Source: Candidatus Bathyarchaeota archaeon
Lineage (GTDB): Archaea > Thermoproteota > Bathyarchaeia > Bathyarchaeales > Bathycorpusculaceae
Direction: 5' to 3'
Assembly: GCA_963770935.1 (NCBI GenBank)
Contig: CAVYRJ010000003.1
Coordinates: 22,223 to 86,222, forward strand
Length of the DNA stretch: 64,000 bases
Part shown: positions 207 to 12,679 of the stretch, one piece after another
Numbering within the stretch: the first letter of the stretch is position 1
Layout of the letters: each line of letters begins with the position of its first letter
Translations under genes and position numbers: made by a program
Notes under the pieces: generated by a model
Told to the model about the DNA's origin: nothing
Database searches by the model: none
The model's input: only the letters and a program-made list of their open reading frames with translations

Positions 207-2846
207 CTATGGTCTTTTTTTGATAATCAATAGAGCTGCTATTGCAATAGCTATAATTATGGCGACTCCTGTACCCAAAATGTACATTTCCACTGGAGAC
301 TGGGCAACTGCTGGCTGCGGCGTGGGTGTCAGTGGTGCTTCACCTACTGTTAAATAGGTTGTTGCAGTGGAAGGACCGTATGATTTGGAGCCTGCGAACA
401 TTGCAATTATCTGGTATGTCCCTGGTATTTCTGGGGTATATGGAAGAGCATAATTTCCGCTGATGTCGCTGGTGGTGTTACCGATGTGGACTAAGTTGCC
501 GTTTGGATCAATAGTGTCCAAGCTAACTGGAACTCCCTTAGCGTTTGCAGGTTTCGGTTGCTGGTGGAACATATATTCCATCCAGGCTTCCATGTCTTCG
601 TCGGATATTGCTGGTGTACCTTTGAGGATGAAGTCTTTGCTGCCTGCCGCATTGTATCTTCCTGAAGGAGATTGATCAGTTACGGTGCCTTCTATCAGTA
701 TGCGGTCTCCATTTGCTGATACTTTCGGAGATGCAGACACTGTGGTGGCGCTTGGTCCCATGCCATAGCAGTATATGGAGTTGTCAATTATGCTGTTGCC
801 AACAAGGTAGCCGTCTGCAAGGTTCACAGATCCCCAGTGCTGTATTTGCCATAATAGTTCTCCTGTTTCTGCGTCTACGCACCATATGTGTGCGTCGCGT
901 CTTAGAGGCATAGTGGGCGAATGCTCGGTTGTGTAGAGGTATAGTTTTCCGTCTGCAATGCAAGCCATTGAAAGCGGAGAATTTGGATAGAAAGTTTCTC
1001 CTAAGCCATAGAGCGGGGCTGACCAGTTCCAAAGGATATTTCCTGTCTTTATGTCATAGGCGATTAGTTCTCCGCTGTAGCCGTAGCTAAAGAGTTTCCC
1101 TTGATAAATGCTGGTGCTCATGCCATAGTAGTTGAATTGGTCTTCGCTTGCGGTGGGACCCCAAAGCAATTGTCCTGTGTCAAGGCTGTAAGCCCAACGT
1201 GTCCTTGTGTATCTTTCTACAAAAGTAAAGACACCATCTTCAGGGTCTACATTTTGAAGTGAAACTCCGCCTGCTTCCCCGAGGTATGTGCTGTTAAGAT
1301 ATTTTTCTGCTGATTTTGGCGGTGTAAAGGGGATGTCCCACAGTGTTGTGCCTTCTTGACCTGGTTTTAGACTGTATGCCCTTAGAAAACCTTGGACTGT
1401 TCCTCTGTCGTCATTTAATCCTTGAGTTCCAACAATCACGTATTCATCCTCACGAACTGCTCGAATGGTGCCTGTTTCGTTGAGAATTGCGTTACGTGGA
1501 CCCAGAATACTTGAAATCGATACGTTTAATGAGAATCCTTTGTTCCCGTCGAAGGTGTAGTTTAAGATGGGTCTCCACATTAAATAGGCGTTACCGCGGG
1601 TGCCAATTATACTTGTGTCATACATAGCTGACAAGATAGCTTGACTTGTGTTCCATACTTGCAAATAGTATTTCGGATTTGCTGTGTTTCCAAGGTTGAC
1701 TGTGTTGTATCGTCGAATGCTTCCGTCCTTGGCGTAAACCGCTGTACCTGCGGAGGAGACGTTAGCTATGCTGGATAGGTATTCGCCTGTTTCTGCATCA
1801 AACAACATCCAGTATTCGGGGGGTGGGTGCAGTTGTGCTCCATAAGTATGGAAAGCCTCCATGTTGGTTTCCAGACTCATAGTTGTATACCTGACCAAAA
1901 GCAAGTGATTGTATAGGATTGCTCCTGAACTGGCAAAACCACTTCCGATTCCTGAAATGGGACCGGTAGTGTTATGGAAGTAGAGCGTTTCGCCTGTATA
2001 GAGGTCAACAGCCCACCATCCATATCTGGGCGGTGTCAAATCGTTGTAGAAGATTTTTCCGTTAATGATAATGTCGGGAGAGCCATAGCTTTCGTATGAC
2101 ATTCCTGAATAATACCCAACGCTGCCAAAACGCTCGTCCATGATGCCTCCAGCCCAATGTGGCTTTGACCACATTATGTGAGCACTTTCAGGTGCTTTGC
2201 CAAAGCCGAAATTAGTTGTTGGGCCATTTTGCTGAGCGGCACCGCTGAGCCAGTTAGCTGCGAGCAGATACCAGTCTCTGTTAGAACCGTATATTGGGCG
2301 CGTCCAGTAATCGTTTGGAAGCGGTGTTTCTTGATATTTGGGTATTGCCTCTTGTTGTACAGTAATTATTGTTGGCTGGCTTGTGCTTGGGGCAAAAGTG
2401 TCGTTAATATATGCTAAACCCGGTTGGTTAATAGGTGCAAAGGGTTGACCAGTTAGTGTTTGTCCAGGGAATCTGGCTATGACAGTATATATGCCCGTTT
2501 GAGTTGGTGTATATAGTGTGAAAGCGCCTCCCACTGGGTCAGAACTGATAGGACCTATTGTTTCTTTGGTCTGGTCAGGCTTTGTGATGTCCAGGTAGAA
2601 TTTCCATCTGTCACCATACGTGCCTGTTGATGTGGGCGGTATCCAGTCGATCCAAAAGACAATTAGAGTTTCTTGGCCCACTCCTATGGTTTCTGGTATG
2701 GCGGCAACGTAGCAGTATGTAGGAATATCAGTCCATGGAGGATAATGTGCATTGACAACTGACAAATTTATAAACGGAAAAGCGATAGCTATTACTAGAA
2801 GCAATGTTATCAAAGTAGTTATTGTTTTTCTATTTGCGAATTTCAT
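207..2846 (-). CDS. Membrane-anchored surface protein with PQQ-like beta-propeller and flanking Ig-like domains
   Basis: Signal peptide; YWTRPI, TGxxLW repeats and EHSP motif; C-terminal TM helix plus IKKRP; paralog of 3546-6043 and 6211-8685; contains a locally shifted segment at about 1817-1915. Confidence 0.85.
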   Translation of the reverse strand: MKFANRKTITTLITLLLVIAIAFPFINLSVVNAHYPPWTDIPTYCYVAAIPETIGVGQETLIVFWIDWIPPTSTGTYGDRWKFYLDITKPDQTKETIGPISSDPVGGAFTLYTPTQTGIYTVIARFPGQTLTGQPFAPINQPGLAYINDTFAPSTSQPTIITVQQEAIPKYQETPLPNDYWTRPIYGSNRDWYLLAANWLSGAAQQNGPTTNFGFGKAPESAHIMWSKPHWAGGIMDERFGSVGYYSGMSYESYGSPDIIINGKIFYNDLTPPRYGWWAVDLYTGETLYFHNTTGPISGIGSGFASSGAILYNHLLLVRYTTMSLETNMEAFHTYGAQLHPPPEYWMLFDAETGEYLSSIANVSSAGTAVYAKDGSIRRYNTVNLGNTANPKYYLQVWNTSQAILSAMYDTSIIGTRGNAYLMWRPILNYTFDGNKGFSLNVSISSILGPRNAILNETGTIRAVREDEYVIVGTQGLNDDRGTVQGFLRAYSLKPGQEGTTLWDIPFTPPKSAEKYLNSTYLGEAGGVSLQNVDPEDGVFTFVERYTRTRWAYSLDTGQLLWGPTASEDQFNYYGMSTSIYQGKLFSYGYSGELIAYDIKTGNILWNWSAPLYGLGETFYPNSPLSMACIADGKLYLYTTEHSPTMPLRRDAHIWCVDAETGELLWQIQHWGSVNLADGYLVGNSIIDNSIYCYGMGPSATTVSASPKVSANGDRILIEGTVTDQSPSGRYNAAGSKDFILKGTPAISDEDMEAWMEYMFHQQPKPANAKGVPVSLDTIDPNGNLVHIGNTTSDISGNYALPYTPEIPGTYQIIAMFAGSKSYGPSTATTYLTVGEAPLTPTPQPAVAQSPVEMYILGTGVAIIIAIAIAALLIIKKRP

Positions 2847-2872
2847 TTTTTTTTCCTTTTCCTAAAATTTGT

Positions 2873-2913
2873 TTGGCAAGAAAAACCTTTTCGGTAACAG
2901 GTTGCCCTGCCAA
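2873..2913 (-). promoter_or_regulatory. 5'-UTR stem-loop upstream of beta-propeller gene 1
   Basis: UUGGCAGG/CUUGCCAA and AACCU/AGGUU helices between a TATA-like TTTAATATA (about 2948-2940) and the AGGAAAAGG SD-like tract. Confidence 0.55.
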
Positions 2914-3104
2914 CAAAAAACAGTAGCTTAAAAGAGGTATATTAAATTATTCAGAAGTCACGATAAATAATACTTATGCAATAATATTAATCCCAATTTC
3001 ATGCCTGCTCGCTTGTTCACTGAACACTAATGTATTGGAGAAAACTGTTATGCGTTTTCGACCTAAGTTGCTTCTTATTTCATTATTTATTCTTACGTCT
3101 TCTA

Positions 3105-3290
3105 ATGCTAACTCGGACGAGTAGCACACGGTTAGAGACGGCAATTCTCCTAAACCGAAATTTTTTGCAAGCCCTTAACCGTGCCGCATGTTGCAAGCGG
3201 TATCTATCAGGATTTTATGGGATACCACCTTTAGCTTCGACTTTTATTTTTAGAAAAATCGTCGTAGACTCGTCCTAATTTTAGGATTGT
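3105..3290. ncRNA. Candidate structured intergenic RNA
   Basis: Nested inverted repeats: GGACGAGT 3115-3122 with ACTCGTCC 3268-3275; CACGGTTA 3127-3134 with TAACCGTG 3176-3183; GGTATC 3199-3204 with GATACC 3221-3226; CGAC 3238-3241 with GTCG 3261-3264. Confidence 0.45.
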
Positions 3291-3482
3291 TTGGTTTATG
3301 TTTTCTTTTTGAATATTTTGACTATTTGATTGTCTTTCAGAAAGAGTAATCACTATTAGTTGCAGGTAATTAGACTTAAGACTAACTGTTTAGATTCAAG
3401 AAAGCTTCATCTATTTTCCGCACATAAGCATAGAGAGTTGACAGGTTAGTTTTAAATAATCTTACTTACAGACTTGATTCTG

Positions 3483-3516
3483 TTGGTTGGCGACCTTTCA
3501 TAGGTTTGCTTACCAA
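3483..3516 (+). promoter_or_regulatory. 5'-UTR stem-loop upstream of beta-propeller gene 2
   Basis: UUGGU/ACCAA and GACCU/AGGUU helices downstream of TTTAAATA (3451-3458), followed by CAAATTATAGGAAAGGAAAAG. Confidence 0.55.
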
Positions 3517-3545
3517 AGGCAAATTATAGGAAAGGAAAAGTAAAA

Positions 3546-6043
3546 ATGAAAATCGCAAAGAAAATGACAATAATTTCTAACAGACCCAGGAAATATGATT
3601 AAAACCGCTATTACCGCGATTCTAATAATGACGCTCGCTATCACGTTTTTTGCGGGAGTTAAGCCAACCGATGCCTTGAAAACAGCTTACATTCAAGCCT
3701 ATGCGGAACCTAACCCTACGGGCATCGGTCAAACCATGTTGATTGGAGGATGGATTACACCCCTCCCAAGTTACAGCCTACCCAACTTTGTCTACTGGGC
3801 GAACTTAACATTTCAGATCACAAAACCCAGCGGATCAGTCGGAACACTTGGCCCCTACACTGGTGGTTCAGCCGCAAATCTCGCTGTGAAATATGTTCCA
3901 GATCAACTAGGCAATTACACTATCAAGATTTCATGGGATGGAGCCAGTTCGAGCCCGTCCCAATCCTATACCTATGCACCTGTTTCGTCAACTACGACAT
4001 TTACAGTGCAAGAAGAAGCCATTGTTCCCTGGCCAGGCGAAGCACTTCCAGGTCCGAACGATTACTGGGAACGCCCCATAAATGCTGAATACAGAGAATG
4101 GAACGTCCTTGCGGGATCATGGTATTATTCGCAAGGACCATCGCGAGGCGGATACGACTCATCAGCAGCTAATTATCAACCATATAGTCTAGCACCTAAC
4201 ACACCGCACATTAACTGGGCTAATAAAGTAACTCAAGGAGGCTTAATTGGCGGATTATCAGAAAGCGAGAAGTTCAATGAAATCGTTGACATGCCCATTC
4301 TGGGCGGAATTGGCATCTACGCTGACAATTGGTTAACTGACCCTCATACAGCCGGATATGGAGCATTAATCGGCTCCACCGAACCTGGATTTCCTAAGAG
4401 CACAGATAAGACAACGTTTACCCTTCACGGTATAGACATACGGACTGGAGAGGAACTGTATTCTCAACCAGCGTACTCATTTGGGCTTTCTCCATCCGGT
4501 GGAACAGGTAGAACCGGTTCAATGCTGCGTGGATACATAGAACCCGTTCCAGCTTTGATGAGTTCAGGCGGAGCAGGTCCCAAAGCTTACTTGTTTGCCA
4601 CGGGAAGCACCTTTGTCCGATGGGATGCTTTCACAGGAACACAGATGCTTGTAATGAACAGCACATTAACTGGAGCATTTGACGGGAGATACGTGTACAG
4701 CAGAAGTGGCAGCAACCTAATCAAGTGGGACCTTACAGCGCTTGGAGGAGGCGAAACAGTTGCTGATGTAGTTGTTTATAACGTGACCGCTCCTTCACTT
4801 GTAAGAGGAAACAGCACGACATACCTGTCCGTAGGCATGTTAGAGGGAACCCTAGGCTTAAGTACGTACACAGTCTCATATGCTGATGGAACATCAGATC
4901 CGGGACTTGCTGGCATTGACTTAGAAACAGGAAAGCTACTGTGGAACAGAACTTTAGTTGGCTGGGGAAGCGTTAACCCGCAGTTCACATCATGCATTTC
5001 AAACGGAAAATACTTCCATATGTCATATGATACTAAGTGGCATTGTTTCGACATGAAAACCGGAGCAGAATTATGGGTAAGTGAACCCTCAGAATTGCCG
5101 TGGGGTCTCTTCGGAGGATATGCCTCAGCTGGTGCCTACAATCTATTCTACTCTTTCAGATACGACGGATACATCCGCGCCATTAACTGCACTACAGGGA
5201 AAACAGAATGGAACTATTACAGTGGCAACTCAGGAACAGAAACACCTTACGGTACATGGCCTTGGTTTAGCCCACCAGCCATTGCTGATGGAAAACTCTA
5301 CGCAGCCACAAGCGAACACAGCCCCAGCAATCCCCCATGGAGAGGCAGCAAACTGTACTGTTTCAACGCAACCACAGGAGACGTAATATGGTCCTTCCCG
5401 TGGCTTGGAGGATACAAAGCTGTAGCAGACGGAATACTAGTAGCAGCCAACGAGTATGATGGGCGACTATATGGCTTTGGCAAAGGTCCAACTGCAACAT
5501 CAGTTTCAGCATCGCCAAAAATCTCACGAACTAGAAAACAAAATACTGGTTGAAGGCTCAATCACTGACATATCCCCCGGCACAAAAAGCTCTGCACTTA
5601 CAGCGCGTTATCCAAATGGAGTTCCAGCTGTTGCAGATGCAGACATGAGCACATGGATGCAATACCTTTACCTACAAAACTTCACAATAAATCCTTCTGA
5701 CGTAAAAGGAGTTGAAGTCGTGGTGAAAGTACTTGACCCAAACAACAACTACTACGAGGTTGGAAGAACTACTAGCGACTCAGATGGCTTCTTCAAGACG
5801 ACGTTTGAACCAGAAGTTCCAGGCGATTATAAAGTCGTCGCTGAATTTGAAGGCACTCAAGCATACTACAGTTCAAATGCGAAAACTGCGATAAGCGTAA
5901 CTGAAGCGCCACAATCAACAGAAGAGCCTGCCCAGCCGGTATCCATCTCTGAGCAGTACTTGCTACCGGGAATAGTAGCAATAATCGTTTCCATCTTTGT
6001 GGTTGGAGCAGTGCTTGGCATACTGATATTTAAAAAGAAGTAA
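3546..6043 (+). CDS. PQQ-like beta-propeller surface protein (split by probable single-base insertion errors)
   Basis: ORFs 3595-5553 and 5456-6043 join at about 5526 (SASPKIS/ELENKILVEG, matching paralog SASPKVSANGDRILIEG); the SD-preceded ATG at 3546 is 1 nt out of frame; YWERPI, EHSP, C-terminal TM plus KKK. Confidence 0.8.
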
Positions 6044-6210
6044 GCAAAACAAATAAAACTCCTCTTTTTTTGTTTCCGTTCTACATTGAAATTTTCTGTC
6101 TTCGTGTAACTATTTTTGTTGAGCTTGAAAGAAGGGAAAGAGGTAGGCGACTTAAAGAACGGCTTCTCCGTTTATAATAAAAAGGGGGAAATGTTGTTTG
6201 GTTGGTCGTG

Positions 6211-8685
6211 CTATGGTCTCTTTTTAAACAGCATTAATCCGACTACGGCTATTGCAATGATTATAGCGATGGTTGATACAGCAATGTACGTCATTATGTC
6301 GGTTGTTGTTGCTGTGATTGGTTGGGCTGTAGTGGTTGGTGTTGTTGTGGGTGTAGAGTAGACTGTAAAGGCTGAAACTGCGTTGGATGACCCGTAAGAG
6401 TTGGATCCGGCAAATGTTGAGATAACTTGGTAGGTGCCTGTTCCAGCTGCAAGCGTATCCGTATTAACTCCTAAACTGTACTGGCCGCTTTTTGCATCGC
6501 TTGTGGCATCGCCAAGGTGTACTAAGTTGCCATTAGGATCAATCGCGTCGATTGACACTGGGACTCCTTTTGCGTTTGTTGGATATGCTTGTTGCTCGTA
6601 TAGGTATTGCATGAATCCTTCTTGGCTATCATCAGATACTGCTGGGGCGCCATTTGGGAATAATGCTACTTGAGATGGATTCTTTGTACCTGCAGATTCA
6701 TCTTTCACGTTGCCTGTAATTGTAAAGCTAGAGCCTAGAGAGATGCCGCTTAGTGGTGCTGTAACTGTGGTGGAGCTTGGTCCCTTTCCGAAACCATAAA
6801 GTCGATTGTCATCTCCGTTTAGCGATACTAGGATTCCATCTGCGACAACACAAGGTCCCATGCCTGAACCACGACCTCCACCTGGACCATTCCACAAGCC
6901 TAGCACTTTCCATATGCCCTGCCCTGTTTCAGCATCGATGCAATGCAGTCTTTCTCCTCTAATCGGTGGACTATTTGGGCTGTGCTCGTTTGTTGCAATA
7001 TAGATTTTCCCATCAGCAATTGTCATGCCACCAAAGAAGGGATATTGACCATAGGGAGTTTCAAAGCCTCCATCTCCAGACGCGTATTCCCAAAGTATTT
7101 TACCAGTTGCTAGATCATGGCAATGAACTAAACCGTCGTAACCAGCTACATATAGGTGACCGTAAGCTATCACTCCAGCTGCTGGATAAACAGCCCAACC
7201 ATTCGTGTAGGGCTCAGAGGGACCCCATATTTGTTTACCAGTGAGCAAACTGTAGGCATTCCATTGCATTGTCTCTTTAATGAATCTGCAGTAGACGCCT
7301 TCACCTATGGGGGATGGGATGTTTCCTCCAGGCGAAGATAGAGATTGGTTTTCCGGGAGCGCTGCGCGGGTCTCGTTCCAAAGCATTGCGCCTGTGGTTG
7401 CGTCGTATCCTATGTCCATTGTACCGGCTGCAGCTAATAGTATGCCGTTGGAATATCCACGCATTGAAGTAATTGCCTGCGTGCCTGGTACATCGGGTAC
7501 TGTAACATTCCATTGGATTCCTCTTGACCAGTTATATGTCTGTCCAGCACGAGGTCTCCATTGCCAATAGTTTGTTCCAGTTGTTCCAGCAAGTAGTTGA
7601 GTGTTATAGGAAGAGTTCCACAGGGTAAGCCGATTTTGTGTTCCGCTGAGAATATAGCATAACAGGTCACCAGCTGCCGATTGCGCGAAAAGGCCAGTGG
7701 ATGCGTTTGCAAATTCGCATATCAAGTCTCCATTAAACGGGTCATACATTTGCCAGGTTGTGCCAGTCGTACTCCATAGATACGGTATTACTCCATGTTG
7801 GTTTGGTGAGTCATAGGCGTAAAGTTGCCCTCTTGAGATAGTTATGTTCTTCCACCAAATCTCCTCTCCAGTAGTTAGGTCAACACACATCGTTCCTGCA
7901 AACGAAGACGACCCTAATGGTGTGGAATAAAAGAGTCTGCCGTTAATTACTACAGGTGGTATCCATTTGCCTTCATATGACAAACCATTGTAATAGTCTA
8001 TGGAGCCGAATGGACCACCGACTAATCCGCCAAAAGCTATCTCTTTTGTCCATAGAATATGGGAACTGTTCGGTGCTGAAGTGTAGTTGGCGAATGCTCC
8101 TCCGTCTCCAAAAAATCCTCCGCCTCTGAAATCATAGTTGTAACCGCTTTGCAGCCAATTATCAGTTATTGACCACCAGTCTCTGTTCTCAGCGTTTATT
8201 GGGCGAGTCCAGTAATCGGTCGGTAATGGGTTGTTGGGGTATGATGGTATTGGCTCTTCTTGAACTGTCAGTTGCGCCGTTAAACTCATGCTTGGTTTAT
8301 AATAGCTATTTGTGAGGTTTTCCCCTGCGAAGAAAGCTTGGAATGTATAATTGCCTATTTGGTCAGGGGTATATTTGGTGTATCCTGCTGCAACAGTATC
8401 TGAGGGGTATGGTCCTAGTGTTTCATTTTTTCCGTCGGGTTTTTGAACTGCGATTGTGAAGCCATGCCAGACATTTCCGGATGTGGGTGGAATGCTTGAA
8501 AGAAAGAAAGCAATTTCTACTTGCTGGCCTTTTCCCACAGTATGGGGGGCAACAGAAATGAAGAGGTAAGTTGCTGTATCTGACTTAGCAAGTGGCAAGC
8601 TAACAAAGAAGGAAGCAGTTATTAATAGGAAAATACAAAGCGTGACTAAGTTTAGCTTTATTCGTATAAGTTTAGTGTTTTTCAT
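6211..8685 (-). CDS. PQQ-like beta-propeller surface protein
   Basis: Signal peptide, YWTRPI, NQHGVIPYLW, ETPYG, EHSP, Thr-rich linker, TM plus FKKRP. Confidence 0.88.
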   Translation of the reverse strand: MKNTKLIRIKLNLVTLCIFLLITASFFVSLPLAKSDTATYLFISVAPHTVGKGQQVEIAFFLSSIPPTSGNVWHGFTIAVQKPDGKNETLGPYPSDTVAAGYTKYTPDQIGNYTFQAFFAGENLTNSYYKPSMSLTAQLTVQEEPIPSYPNNPLPTDYWTRPINAENRDWWSITDNWLQSGYNYDFRGGGFFGDGGAFANYTSAPNSSHILWTKEIAFGGLVGGPFGSIDYYNGLSYEGKWIPPVVINGRLFYSTPLGSSSFAGTMCVDLTTGEEIWWKNITISRGQLYAYDSPNQHGVIPYLWSTTGTTWQMYDPFNGDLICEFANASTGLFAQSAAGDLLCYILSGTQNRLTLWNSSYNTQLLAGTTGTNYWQWRPRAGQTYNWSRGIQWNVTVPDVPGTQAITSMRGYSNGILLAAAGTMDIGYDATTGAMLWNETRAALPENQSLSSPGGNIPSPIGEGVYCRFIKETMQWNAYSLLTGKQIWGPSEPYTNGWAVYPAAGVIAYGHLYVAGYDGLVHCHDLATGKILWEYASGDGGFETPYGQYPFFGGMTIADGKIYIATNEHSPNSPPIRGERLHCIDAETGQGIWKVLGLWNGPGGGRGSGMGPCVVADGILVSLNGDDNRLYGFGKGPSSTTVTAPLSGISLGSSFTITGNVKDESAGTKNPSQVALFPNGAPAVSDDSQEGFMQYLYEQQAYPTNAKGVPVSIDAIDPNGNLVHLGDATSDAKSGQYSLGVNTDTLAAGTGTYQVISTFAGSNSYGSSNAVSAFTVYSTPTTTPTTTAQPITATTTDIMTYIAVSTIAIIIAIAVVGLMLFKKRP

Positions 8686-9810: not shown

Positions 9811-10283
9811 TTATTTTCCTGACGATTGAGTATATTGCATGGATACGGTTATTCTATTCCGGCTGAGACTATGTTTAATTTCGTTGTTTATTCTCGAATT
9901 TCCTCTACCTTTACTGGCGTGACCAAAACGAGTTATTTTCCAGTTATCGATGTTTCCTCGAATTATCTGCGGATTGCTTGTTAGTATGTAGAAGGGTATT
10001 TTTGTCTGGGAAGTGTAAAGGTCAGCAACAAAGTTTAGAAGTCGTTTTCCCACGCCGATTCCTTGATAGTCTGGAAGCACCACTAAACGGCTGACTCGAT
10101 AATACTTTGCTTTCATTCTGACGCAAGCCACAGCTATGAACGCTATAGGTTTGTTTTGGAAGATGGCAACGTAGCATCGGACACCTGCACCCAAGGAGCC
10201 GCTTAGATAGTGATAGTTCCGAAACATTTTCCATAGGCTTGGGCCGCACCGATAGATTTGGAGTTCAACGGGCGGCCTACTTC
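9811..10283 (-). CDS. GNAT-family acetyltransferase (likely C-terminal part of an ATPase-GNAT frameshift fusion)
   Basis: RVSRLVVLPDYQGIGVG acetyl-CoA motif; the frame is open upstream of ATG 10227 (RSRPPVELQIYRCGPSLWKMFRNYHYL) back to the A7 run. Confidence 0.8.
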
Positions 10284-10886
10284 TTTTTTTCGGCTAAACT
10301 CCATCGTGTCAGTGCAGAAAACCCAGTCAGGATCTAGCCAATCAACCACGTCATAGTGGCATGTAACAGCTATGAATTTCTTGGAGCTTCTGCGAACAGC
10401 CTTGCTAATAGCAAATGCGCTAACTTTAGCTATCTCTCTATCTACAACTGAAGTAAACTCATCGAACACAATAAGTGGCTTCTCTAAACAGAGCGCACGT
10501 GCTATATCCACCCGCATCTTCTCTCCCTGACTCAAACAATCGTAAGCCTTCAACCAATCCGGTGGCGAAGCAAAACCAACGCTGCCAAGCATCTTGGTAA
10601 TTTCAGATGTCTCAATTTCCGTAGGAAAGTCATCTAGAACACACTTGTCTTTGTACTCAAAGTCTCGTATGTAAGCGTCTGGAAAAAGCTGCTTAGCTAT
10701 ACTTGTTTTGCCTGAGCCGCTGCGCCCAACGATAACGCCAACTTGCCAGTCAAAATCCTCAAGCGGCAAGGACCCTCTGAACCGCTTCTCCAATTTAACA
10801 TCGCTTAGCGTGTAGCTGCCGACGACGCTTTGTGCTCGGAAGCTGTCGCTTTCTTCCCAGCGTTTTACAATGTCAAAATCCGTAGC
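10203..10886 (-). CDS. ABC-like ATPase of phage ATPase-GNAT type
   Basis: Walker A GRSGSGKT, signature LSQGEK, Walker B VFDEFTS, H-loop TCHYD; frame open to 10886 (ATDFDIVKRWEESDSFRAQSVVG) with no ATG/GTG/TTG before 10793. Confidence 0.85.
   Translation of the reverse strand, partial: ATDFDIVKRWEESDSFRAQSVVGSYTLSDVKLEKRFRGSLPLEDFDWQVGVIVGRSGSGKTSIAKQLFPDAYIRDFEYKDKCVLDDFPTEIETSEITKMLGSVGFASPPDWLKAYDCLSQGEKMRVDIARALCLEKPLIVFDEFTSVVDREIAKVSAFAISKAVRRSSKKFIAVTCHYDVVDWLDPDWVFCTDTMEFSRKKEVGRPLNSKSIGAAQAYGKCFGTITI
10242..10302 (-). other. Candidate -1 programmed ribosomal frameshift signal
   Basis: GGAG (10302-10299), A AAA AAA (10290-10284), spacer GAAGUA, stem GGCCGC-CCG / CGG-U-GCGGCC (10277-10242). 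Confidence 0.6.
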
Positions 10887-11419
10887 TTATACCCCTCCGC
10901 TTTTAATTTCTCAAAATATTCTTTTTGCTGGACCTCGCTTCGGCACTCAATTATAAGCTCGTAAGTTTCAGGAACCGAAAAAGAGACCTCTCGGTCATCT
11001 ACCTCTATGGGGAGCTTTTCGCCGACGGATTGAAGGAATAACTTTAATTCCTCTTTTTCTCCCTCGTCAATTATGCGCAGGTACTCGGCACTATCCATCT
11101 CCCTGTTATGCTTGCCCCGTAGCTTGTTTAGCACCTGCCGAAGCAAGCGGCGATCAACATCCTTAACTGGCAAGCGAATGACACTGCACTCGGTCATGCC
11201 AAGCTCCTTCATAGCCGTAACCCGCTGCTGACCATCAGCCACCAAAAGCTCACTGTTGGTAACGACGGGAACTATGTCTCCCCATCTTCTAATAGAAGCT
11301 TTCAAGCGGTCAAGCTGGGCAAGACTCATCCTGTTAGGATTGTCTTGGTCAAACTTGAGATCACTGATCTTCACACGTTCCGACATTGGAATCGGAATTT
11401 CTTTTTCAAGCTCACTCAT
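10865..11419 (-). CDS. ParB N-terminal (ParB/Srx) domain protein, virus type
   Basis: ISDLKFDQDNPNRM...LKASIRRWG.IVPVV...VADGQQRVTAMKELG; C-terminal YELIIEC..E..Q...FEKL..EGY.LRIL overlapping the ATPase frame. Confidence 0.85.
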   Translation of the reverse strand: MSELEKEIPIPMSERVKISDLKFDQDNPNRMSLAQLDRLKASIRRWGDIVPVVTNSELLVADGQQRVTAMKELGMTECSVIRLPVKDVDRRLLRQVLNKLRGKHNREMDSAEYLRIIDEGEKEELKLFLQSVGEKLPIEVDDREVSFSVPETYELIIECRSEVQQKEYFEKLKAEGYKLRILTL

Positions 11420-12078
11420 TCCGCTTTCTCTTCCATTTTCTTATCTAAACCTTTAATGAGGGCTTCCCGTTCCTCTGGATGCTCTTCATAGTACTCCCTA
11501 ATTTTACGTGAAATAAACTCGTCATGGAACCCCTCGAACTTCTCAAAACTCTTCTCAGTGAACACGCCCTCGGGATAGATCGCTTTTATTTTTGCGTCTA
11601 CCGCGTCCCACCAAGCAAAATCGTCAAACGCGGGGTCGTCCTCGTTTCGGTTATTGTTGTATTCATAATCTTCTATCAGGCAGTCGTGGTTGAATTTCTT
11701 CATCTCATGGAAGAACCACATAACTCTGAGCATAACGCGTGAGTCTTCGCCTTTGGGATATGCGGCAGCGAACCATTTATAGAGTAAGCGTTCTAAGCGG
11801 TAGCTTAAAAATTCGTGTGATTGTTCAAGAATGGCGTTTTCCTGGTCTGTTAGTTTGCTTAGAAGCTGTTTGGCTGCCTCGTTTTGTTGTTCCGGGCTTG
11901 TGCCGCTGTTTATTATGGCTTGTGCGTCGTCTTTGAAAGATGCTCTTATTTTCTGTGCGTGGTCATGCAGGAGTTGTTCGTCTAAGTTGCCAATGTTGAG
12001 CATTATGTCGTCGTCTTCTGGGGGAAAGTCTAAAATGTTATCTTCTAATTCGTGGAGTTTACGGCTTAACAAATTCAT
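11416..12078 (-). CDS. Hypothetical acidic protein (mobile-element associated)
   Basis: 220-aa ORF whose ends overlap both neighbouring ORFs. Confidence 0.7.
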   Translation of the reverse strand: MNLLSRKLHELEDNILDFPPEDDDIMLNIGNLDEQLLHDHAQKIRASFKDDAQAIINSGTSPEQQNEAAKQLLSKLTDQENAILEQSHEFLSYRLERLLYKWFAAAYPKGEDSRVMLRVMWFFHEMKKFNHDCLIEDYEYNNNRNEDDPAFDDFAWWDAVDAKIKAIYPEGVFTEKSFEKFEGFHDEFISRKIREYYEEHPEEREALIKGLDKKMEEKAE

Positions 12079-12407
12079 CAGAACCCTCTCCTAGCCCTTT
12101 CTGTCTTGGTTTTTTCGCCATCAGGTTGCGGTTTGGGAATCAGTATGCTATTTTTTAGCTTCTCCTCTAAGGCTATCACTCTGAACTCTAACTCCTCGTC
12201 TTTGAGGAGGTTGCCGTAGGTTGAGACGGCTGAAACCATGACCCTTGCCCAGCCTTGTTTTGCTTTGTCGCTGTTTCCAGCACCATGAATTTTTTTGTGG
12301 GAGAGGCTTAAAACGCCGTCTAAAACGCGAAACAACGTATTTCTGCGGTCTTTAGCTGAACGGTTTAATGATGGTTTCTTATTGGTTTTAGCTTCAACTT
12401 CACCCAA
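12078..12407 (-). CDS. Hypothetical protein, weakly reminiscent of archaeal viral small-terminase-like proteins
   Basis: Probable TTG start at 12407; helical body ending EELEFRVIALEEKL; TGATG overlap with the next gene. Confidence 0.55.
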   Translation of the reverse strand: MGEVEAKTNKKPSLNRSAKDRRNTLFRVLDGVLSLSHKKIHGAGNSDKAKQGWARVMVSAVSTYGNLLKDEELEFRVIALEEKLKNSILIPKPQPDGEKTKTERARRGF

Positions 12408-12679
12408 GCTACACTGCGCCTTCTTGAGTTTGGCTCCAACACCAATGGAGAAAAGACAACGCAAAGAGTTAGCTCTCAAGACACCACAAAACAAGACAAC
12501 AAATAGTGACTTACACAATCCAAGAAATAAATTTTCCTATAAGTTTAAAATTTAACAAAAAATAATGTTGGTTTGTAAACACTTTGAAACTTAATAAGAA
12601 AGACAAAGTACCACTTCTACGCGCTTTTTTTAGAATCATATTATTGGTAGTTGTATACTCTTGTCAATCACAAAACCTA

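Follow-up and report, generated by a model that had tools for sequence, protein, structure and literature searches.

The window that we analysed is a stretch of 64,000 nucleotides from a Candidatus Bathyarchaeota archaeon (NCBI GenBank assembly GCA_963770935.1, contig CAVYRJ010000003.1), and in it we found a minus-strand cassette that encodes a ParB-like protein, an ABC-type ATPase and an acetyltransferase domain of the GNAT fold. The listing of open reading frames (ORFs) gives five minus-strand ORFs, the first three with the limits entered in Table 1 and the last two at 10793-10203 (ATPase) and 10227-9811 (GNAT). An earlier note, made from the sequence alone, had described them as a unit of five overlapping genes. 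The five ORFs are real; however, the conserved unit is the last three, which amount to two genes, and the first two ORFs, of 146 and 220 amino acids (aa), match no family and are present in few copies. As the same note had reported, the ATPase is ABC-like and has no permease partner, and the GNAT domain keeps an intact QGxGxG motif (QGIGVG). We found Walker A, signature, Walker B and H-loop of the ATPase all intact, and no permease in the cassette or its flanks. The columns of the ABC motifs and of the acyl-CoA motif are invariant across 81 relatives. We rejected an ABC transporter, as no membrane permease occurs in the cassette, the flanks or the phage loci. Our comparisons suggest that the ATPase and GNAT ORFs are very likely one gene that is read through recoding. 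The explanation that we favour as a whole, a viral remnant with a recoded gene whose product would acylate a DNA base in an ATP-coupled reaction, has in our estimate a probability of roughly 60%.

The earlier note had taken the ATPase and GNAT as separate genes, and here our analysis departs from it. A single PHROG profile, phrog_11143 (357 positions), spans both ORFs: positions 35-201 match the ATPase ORF (E 3.3e-57) and positions 217-350 match the GNAT ORF (E 3.4e-23), and in the genome search positions 12-201 and 196-351 of the profile were matched. The GNAT frame is open upstream of its own ATG as far as a TAG just before a run of seven adenines (A7), which reads cgA_AAA_AAA_g in the ATPase frame. 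A -1 shift at this run would yield ...FSRKK-RSRPPVELQIYRCGPSLWKMFRNYHYL..., which aligns with the linker of phage proteins that are encoded in frame, such as phiE255 gp29; the pattern RPPxxLxI...W..F..HYL is common to both. AlphaFold models of the closest in-frame relative (361 aa; pLDDT 93.1, pTM 0.88) and of the window GNAT product in the -1 frame (pLDDT 88.8; strand beta1 at residues 9-13, helix alpha1 at 15-24, the ATG at residue 20) both place beta1 and the first half of alpha1 in the stretch ahead of the ATG. Because these elements lie upstream, a GNAT domain begun at its own ATG is predicted to be incomplete. With 539 clusters found by HMMER at E<=1e-30, the enzyme family is very widespread in viruses, and a length of 350-399 aa, the size of a fusion, is found in 97 of the best 150 relatives.

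We found that the frame change is kept across relatives. Matches at E<=1e-10 are present in 25 of 36 other genomes of the genus, often several apiece, and our genus sample comprises 30 distinct copies from 20 genomes (the window copy and 29 others, with ATPase identity of 55-92%; two doubly fetched loci were dropped). GNAT lies in the -1 frame after an A7 run in 16 of these copies and after an A9 run in 10, so that 26 of 30 have a -1 change at the poly-A run; GNAT is in the +1 frame after A8 in two copies and in frame in two (a broken copy, and one in which a single nucleotide is inserted past the run). At least 399 relatives are present in IMG/VR, and among the best 80, for which tract and frame were scored, 30 are in the -1 frame (A9 in 24, A7 in three, A10 in three), one is in the +1 frame with A11, and the other 49 are in frame, each having A10 precisely at the junction. 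Five of the eight cultured phages that we examined are in frame, and three phages of Lactobacillales need a -1 shift at the same linker: 315.4 (L001, a Streptococcus prophage), P335 (L002, Lactococcus) and Oenococcus unk162 (L004). Their slip motifs are GGTTTTTC (two phages) or A_AAG_GGC, and their records annotate an 'ABC transporter' and a short hypothetical gene. With a slippery tract built into the gene, many entries that are split into an "ABC transporter" and a small acetyltransferase would therefore be misread. Among 21 pairs of seven window-like copies, pN/pS is 0.10 for the ATPase core and 0.25 for GNAT, and synonymous change in the overlap after the run is 0.27-0.29, as compared to 0.6-0.8 elsewhere. 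We used public contigs, which are short fragments that never span the cassette, solely to check the length of the A7 run: no tract variant was found in contigs covering the run (sequencing runs X1, X2 and X4), and one low-depth X3 contig has compensating indels beside it.

The site where the frames change has the features of a -1 frameshift site. An X_XXY_YYZ heptamer lies in the zero frame, a stable structure follows within 5-9 nt (the spacer is 6 nt), and site and frame relation are kept in the 16 A7/-1 genome copies and in three IMG/VR contigs. The window hairpin folds at -17.2 kcal/mol (z -2.66), a stability that 3 of 200 shuffled sequences reach. Every one of the 18 A7 copies has the hairpin, with its eight G-C pairs retained in 16 to 18 of them, whereas it is missing from five of the six A9 copies that were folded (of 10 found). 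Plain reading would give an ATPase-only protein ending 26 codons past the A7 run, and a -1 shift at A_AAA_AAA, aided by the hairpin, would give a fusion of ~330-360 aa in which the GNAT fold is complete; the two proteins are probably produced together at a fixed ratio. In the text of PMC3711429 available to us, A runs longer than seven are described as transcriptional realignment sites. In our reading, A7 with its hairpin would act by ribosomal -1 frameshifting, like fucA of Saccharolobus solfataricus, and for the A9 and A10 tracts the mechanism would be polymerase slippage or length switching at the DNA level; the A9 copies without a hairpin probably reach the same product by slippage of RNA polymerase. 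Thus, the recoding reading of the enzyme gene is strongly supported by comparison of the sequences.

Table 1. Features of the cassette, in window coordinates
Feature	Position	Strand	Remark
146-aa ORF	12078..12518	-	no family matches; accessory gene of this cassette variant
220-aa ORF	11416..12078	-	acidic; no family matches; restricted to this archaeal or viral lineage
ParB-N-like protein, 184 aa	10865..11419	-	PHROG matches; NPN(R/K) and DGxQR motifs
ABC ATPase, zero-frame reading, 227 codons open	10203..10886	-	stop at 10205-10203
Walker A GRSGSGKT	10704-10727	-	ATPase motif
ABC signature LSQGE	10521-10535	-	ATPase motif
Walker B LIVFDE	10458-10475	-	ATPase motif
H-loop CHYD	10350-10361	-	ATPase motif
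A7 run, A_AAA_AAA in ATPase frame	10284..10290	-	proposed -1 slip site, ATPase-GNAT junction
GC-rich hairpin (GCCGC-CCG paired with CGG-u-GCGGC)	10242..10277	-	proposed frameshift stimulator; 6 nt past the A7 run
GNAT domain, -1 frame reading, 157 codons plus stop	9811..10284	-	own ATG at 10227
Acyl-CoA motif QGIGVG of GNAT	10048-10065	-	intact
Repeated 2.7-kb cassette	9832..12500	.	further genomic copies

The two ORFs ahead of the conserved unit have a narrow distribution. The 146-aa ORF is present in 3 of 30 other loci and is 63% identical at the aa level to its counterpart in the copy on contig C1 of the same genome; homology to that second genomic copy begins near 12500. For the 220-aa ORF, Pfam, PHROGs and the protein Atlas gave no match, and a search returned 143 homologs; among the matches listed (120), identity is 59-91% and nearly all are unnamed or 'hypothetical', three are labelled DUF2225 by JGI, and one at 77% identity is named as from a Candidatus Bathyarchaeota metagenome-assembled genome. 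The flanks are ordinary archaeal chromosome, with genes for PQQ-type propeller surface proteins, TrmB, an RHH protein, DUF2090, GlpX, AspRS and TFIIB. Window 207-8685 holds a cluster of four large PQQ-like beta-propeller proteins, secreted or anchored, that also contain Ig/filamin-like parts, and pieces related to this cluster are scattered on other contigs.

Within the enzyme family we also observed two proteins that carry an insertion with intein-type domains. In P0052, the insertion (Hint and LAGLIDADG matches in Pfam) comes directly after the Walker A lysine; in P0051, an unannotated insertion of ~400 aa lies shortly after the ABC signature motif. A longer in-frame ABC-ATPase-GNAT protein of ~480-530 aa (L147:834-2426, L149:974-2413) occurs once in most genomes of the order, in some of them without the short viral form, and about half of the Atlas clusters that resemble it are viral.

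That the cassette is virus-derived, as the earlier note had proposed, agrees with what we found around its relatives. The ATPase part matches 78 phage records, and the closest relatives of the module lie on viral contigs in IMG/VR. When we examined 22 same-genus loci of 20 kb, the large terminase subunit TerL (phrog_2, 1e-27) follows the ParB-enzyme pair in 10, mostly with a small gene of ~140-230 aa coming first, and portal, scaffold and major-head matches are present in some of these 10; another TerL lies beside the pair in two loci, and no terminase was recognised in the remaining 10. The pair sits between the small gene and TerL in two loci. In 27 IMG/VR loci, one of the two ORFs that come next encodes TerL, usually after a small HTH/DUF5681/Sf6-TerS-like gene. 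Together, these data indicate that the cassette is almost certainly a viral module and a remnant of a virus. The host is probably a member of Bathyarchaeia, a lead given by the 77%-identical homolog of the 220-aa ORF. In the text of a paper on Bathyarchaeia viruses (PMC10848311; supplements not included), "acetyltransferase", "GNAT", "ABC" and "frameshift" have 0 occurrences each.

The ParB-N assignment of the earlier note stands: the Pfam match is weak (E 0.022) and the PHROGs matches are clear (phrog_498, 4e-20; phrog_620, 5e-16). The window protein carries NPNR and DGQQR and ends in a small conserved C-terminal domain (10868-10963), which occurs alone, without ParB-N, as phiE255 gp28. The ParB gene adjoins and precedes the ATPase in 27 of 31 loci, a ParB-like or small adaptor gene lies directly upstream of the ATPase-GNAT gene in the window and in the phage and archaeal loci, and in 11 of the best 150 relatives (558-623 aa) ParB-N, the small C-terminal domain and ABC-GNAT form a single chain. 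We rejected a chromosome or plasmid partition ParB, as only the N-domain was matched (Pfam, PHROGs and NCBIfam) with no HTH domain, and a scan of the neighbouring ORFs found no ParA near the cassette. Methylase-ParB matches were found in both PHROGs and PADLOC.

For the function, we propose that, at the late stage of infection that immediately precedes packaging, the ParB-like protein would bring the enzyme to double-stranded viral DNA or activate it there, that binding and hydrolysis of ATP by the ABC dimer would open access to a base, and that the GNAT domain would acylate an exocyclic amine with acyl-CoA as the donor, N4 of cytosine being the most attractive target. The position of the module at the head of the packaging block and the company that ParB-N domains keep with DNA methylases point to DNA. 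ASCH genes follow the module in two phages, and ASCH proteins hydrolyse N4-acylcytosines according to the text that we drew on (PMC6972931; PMC12707154). Enzymes of acyl-donor type adjoin the module in three phages (a formyltransferase in two, PanD and a CoA-transferase in one). Other observations count against a DNA base. When we used two ASCH, two formyltransferase and one PanD phage proteins as tblastn queries (E<=1e-3) against 100 archaeal and IMG/VR loci, a search that is weak for such small domains, none was found, and Pfam found none of these families in 124 ORFs downstream of the IMG/VR genes. The nearest solved folds of the GNAT domain are the protein N-acetyltransferases RimI, Naa50 and Ard1, plus 1y9k (Z 13-14), and members of the phrog_11143 family are not known to make a modified base. 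We hold acylation of a DNA base as tentative and somewhat short of an even chance.

The same fold matches could mean that the target is a protein (a packaging or virion protein, or the ParB partner), an RNA such as tRNA, or a small molecule. In this direction also point rimI as the only NCBIfam match of the GNAT, the tight linkage to terS and terL with the module between them in two loci, and the action of TmcA on tRNA. However, the similarity among GNAT folds is such that a fold match does not identify the substrate, ParB-N domains accompany DNA enzymes (the methylase-ParB matches, and a dioxygenase activator in the part of PMC13229309 that we drew on), and the ASCH and acyl-donor neighbours point to a base. 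We consider a target other than DNA a serious possibility, yet an unlikely one.

Several observations weigh against recoding at this site. A7 runs are common in the genes of this genome (283 in 663 long ORFs; AAA is 72% of Lys codons), so the A7 run alone means little. In the overlap, pN/pS fails to separate the two frames (0.58 vs 0.50). The hairpin arms encode the conserved RPP and RCG, and protein conservation could explain part of the conservation of the stem; covariation was found at 0 of 12 pairs in the 18 A7 copies, an uninformative result given that the stems are invariant. The public sequencing runs that match the cassette (no more than 0.35 of words matched) consist of DNA contigs from metagenomes of wetland, soil and sediment, and no RNA run is among them. 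The window ATPase has no canonical start at its conserved ancestral N-terminus. Finally, near-identical IMG/VR contigs differ solely in tract length (A9, A10 or A11), which also fits on/off switching at the DNA level.

On this last point, the poly-A tract could be a phase-variation switch in which slippage during replication turns the fusion on (A10) or off (A9, A11). Contig L125 has A10 and the near-identical L118, L120, L121, L126 and L130 have A9; L128 has A11 and the near-identical L123, L129 and L132 have A10; and A8 variants occur in two genome copies. Against a switch, the archaeal clade is mostly out of frame, in 26 of 30 genome copies and in 16 of the 17 closest IMG/VR contigs (L067-L083, with only L081 in frame), and A7 with its hairpin is fixed in 18 copies, with no length variant in public contigs at the window. 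A switch of this kind is thus improbable as the explanation of the frame change, and we prefer recoding.

The missing start codon of the window ATPase is a feature of its lineage. The ATPase frame is open from 10886, and the first canonical start, a TTG at 10793, lies 31 codons inside the conserved coding sequence. The ancestral ATG or GTG that overlapped the ParB stop was lost by a change from AAGTGC to AAGCTA (window 10865-10890), and we found this loss in nine copies, one of them on a viral contig (L018, L023, L024, L027, L032, L034, L036, L042 and L067). The 31 codons ahead of the TTG are nevertheless under purifying selection (pN/pS 0.17; 21 pairs of seven window-like copies). It is possible that the ATPase is translated by re-initiation at a non-canonical codon, and also possible that a second -1 shift from the ParB frame imitates the natural single-chain fusions.

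The genome that contains the window holds four copies of the cassette. The window copy is a solitary 2.7 kb, and the other three are decayed: the copy at C1:195595-198270 is 85.9% identical over 2679 bp with 13 small indels, and those on C17 (903 bp) and C13 (571 bp) are truncated, with stops. Homology of all copies ends at the GNAT stop (window 9832-9836). No terminase follows the window copy. A tRNA scan found no tRNA near any copy, and thus no tRNA-type attachment site. We rejected a self-mobile element: the flanking ORFs that were scanned include no recognisable transposase or integrase (terminal repeats were not searched for), and the copies share the gene block only. At the same chromosomal site, a sister species carries a different, TerL-linked variant that is 51% identical in ParB, 76% in the ATPase and 62% in GNAT, with flanks that are 90% identical. 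On these comparisons, we conclude that the window carries one end of a tailed archaeal provirus, left stranded where insertions are frequent, and that this copy is probably no longer part of a working virus.

As separate observations, a TerL match (phrog_2, E 1e-27, 290-aa open frame) lies at G000:C1:50918-51736 in the same genome, far from the four copies. Window 13012-13057 matches G000:C1:202269-202314 over 46 nt at 93%, upstream of both full-length copies at distances of 0.5 kb and 4 kb. Another solitary copy (L054:2544-8129; ATPase 92% identical) has a large helicase (phrog_16694) and a methylase-like protein (phrog_2713) as neighbours, surroundings that may be a defence island.

The earlier note had suggested that the module is kept on the chromosome and possibly protects DNA from nucleases or is repurposed for defence; we weighed the corresponding rival, a domesticated host system for defence or self-marking. 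The window ORFs are intact, 10 of the 22 loci have no recognised terminase beside the pair, and one terminase-less copy is the one next to a helicase and a methylase. We did not find this idea borne out. PADLOC gave only generic matches (mad3 to the ABC signature region, MTase_II to the ParB part) and no defence system, the copies lie at different sites and three of the four are decaying, the same-site copy of the sister species is far more diverged than its flanks, and the closest relatives are on viral contigs. A stranded provirus end is simpler than domestication because the copies are decayed and the sister site holds a different, terminase-linked variant, and we give domestication little credence.

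Two translationally coupled genes, with the ATPase ending at 10203, GNAT starting at ATG 10227 and no recoding, are another reading: the ATG exists in the window, an overlap of 25 nt is ordinary for coupled genes, and databases annotate phage versions as two genes. However, 16 of 28 out-of-frame copies lack the Met of the GNAT start: four of the 16 copies of the A7/-1 type have I, L, T or S instead, and each of the 12 with A8 or A9 has V, L or I. The modelled fold begun there would also miss beta1 and half of alpha1, the open -1 frame upstream matches the linker of in-frame fusions, and fusion-sized relatives predominate among the best 150, so we regard coupling as very improbable. Least credible is that the frame break is decay or an assembly error in a dead remnant with no programmed signal, which the solitary window copy, its three broken sister copies and the lost ATPase start codon might suggest, but the same break at the same run recurs in 30 of the best 80 viral contigs and in 26 of 30 copies whose identity spans 55-92%, both halves are under purifying selection, independent public contigs show the same A7, and truly decayed copies differ in having many scattered indels.

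The recoding reading can be extended to a fuller picture, which we offer as speculative and, taken in all its parts, rather unlikely. In this picture, the poly-A tract would be a programmed recoding signal (ribosomal for A7 with hairpin, polymerase slippage for A9 and A10), kept from Lactobacillales phages to Bathyarchaeia viruses, that sets the ratio of ATPase-only to ATPase-GNAT chains in an asymmetric ABC dimer, and this dimer, with ParB, would write an acyl mark, most plausibly N4-acylcytosine, on viral DNA before packaging. If true, this would be a second proven archaeal -1 frameshift and a new DNA modification chemistry. With one archaeal -1 case established, the tract is a natural, many-times-replicated test bed for archaeal frameshifting and transcriptional slippage, in which the sequence series, A7 plus hairpin vs A9 without, separates the two mechanisms. 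The archaeal proviral copies extend the module beyond bacteria. What is new here is the conserved recoding site, a family-wide slippery tract at a domain junction, along with the occurrence in archaeal proviruses and an ATPase start that the window lineage has lost; the phage module with a role in DNA modification is already a published prediction, as given in the portion of PMC7824862 that we drew on. Our literature searches on frameshifting with GNAT-ABC ATPase or ParB prophage genes found no report of this recoding, and the available text of PMC3711429 has 0 occurrences of "acetyltransferase".

The putative recoding site resembles that of fucA, which the text of PMC8037382 available to us presents as the only proven archaeal -1 frameshift (A-AAA-AAT and a stem-loop), and those of the dnaX and insertion sequence (IS) genes with poly-A slippage (PMC3711429, likewise in part). 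They have in common an A-rich heptamer in the zero frame, a downstream stem-loop and two products that share an N-terminus; the genes are different, and the cassette site falls at the boundary between two domains and is conserved in viruses of archaea and bacteria alike. The module itself corresponds to the 'GNAT coupled with an ABC ATPase' phage system that Iyer, Zhang, Burroughs and Aravind predicted in 2013 to acylate nucleic acid in an ATP-coupled way (PMC7824862, from the portion consulted): it shares the phrog_11143 family, the ParB-like or small-adaptor partner and the position before the packaging genes. In contrast to that system, the window host is archaeal, the gene needs a -1 shift, and the window copy is without its virus and without the start codon of the ATPase, both of them lost. 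For the ParB-like partner, the nearest parallel is a short phage ParB that activates a phage thymine dioxygenase on double-stranded DNA, as far as the excerpted text of PMC13229309 goes. Both have a nucleotide-binding N-domain and a C-terminal domain with no obvious DNA-binding domain, and both genes adjoin a DNA-modifying or presumed DNA-modifying enzyme; however, the enzyme class is different and the partnership in the cassette is a putative one.

The earlier note had related the GNAT domain to Mom of phage Mu, a kinship that our searches do not support. Pfam and PHROGs gave no Mom-like match (whether these libraries contain a Mom model was not checked), and the folds are RimI/Nat-like. Mom, which modifies adenine, is like the cassette enzyme a GNAT-fold protein of the late viral genes with DNA as the presumed substrate; however, Mom is not known to have an ATPase or a ParB partner, and the cassette enzyme has both. 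In phiE255 (genus Bcepmuvirus per its record), the module lies after the tail-fibre genes; we take phiE255 to be a 'Mu-like' phage in which the module presumably occupies the position that mom has in Mu. The ATPase resembles the nucleotide-binding domains of transporters (Z 15), and a sequence search of solved structures gave generic ABC-signature matches only. TmcA (2zpa_A) was Foldseek rank 17 (E 4e-8; TMq 0.29, rmsd 13.7). TmcA makes ac4C, and TmcA/NAT10, which acetylate N4 of cytidine in tRNA or rRNA at the expense of ATP, share with the cassette enzyme the order of a P-loop ATPase followed by a GNAT domain. We rejected membership of the TmcA/NAT10 family, as their ATPase is helicase-like, whereas that of the cassette is of the ABC type, and the cassette enzyme has no tRNA-binding domain; TmcA/NAT10 nevertheless provide a working model for ATP-coupled acylation of a base.

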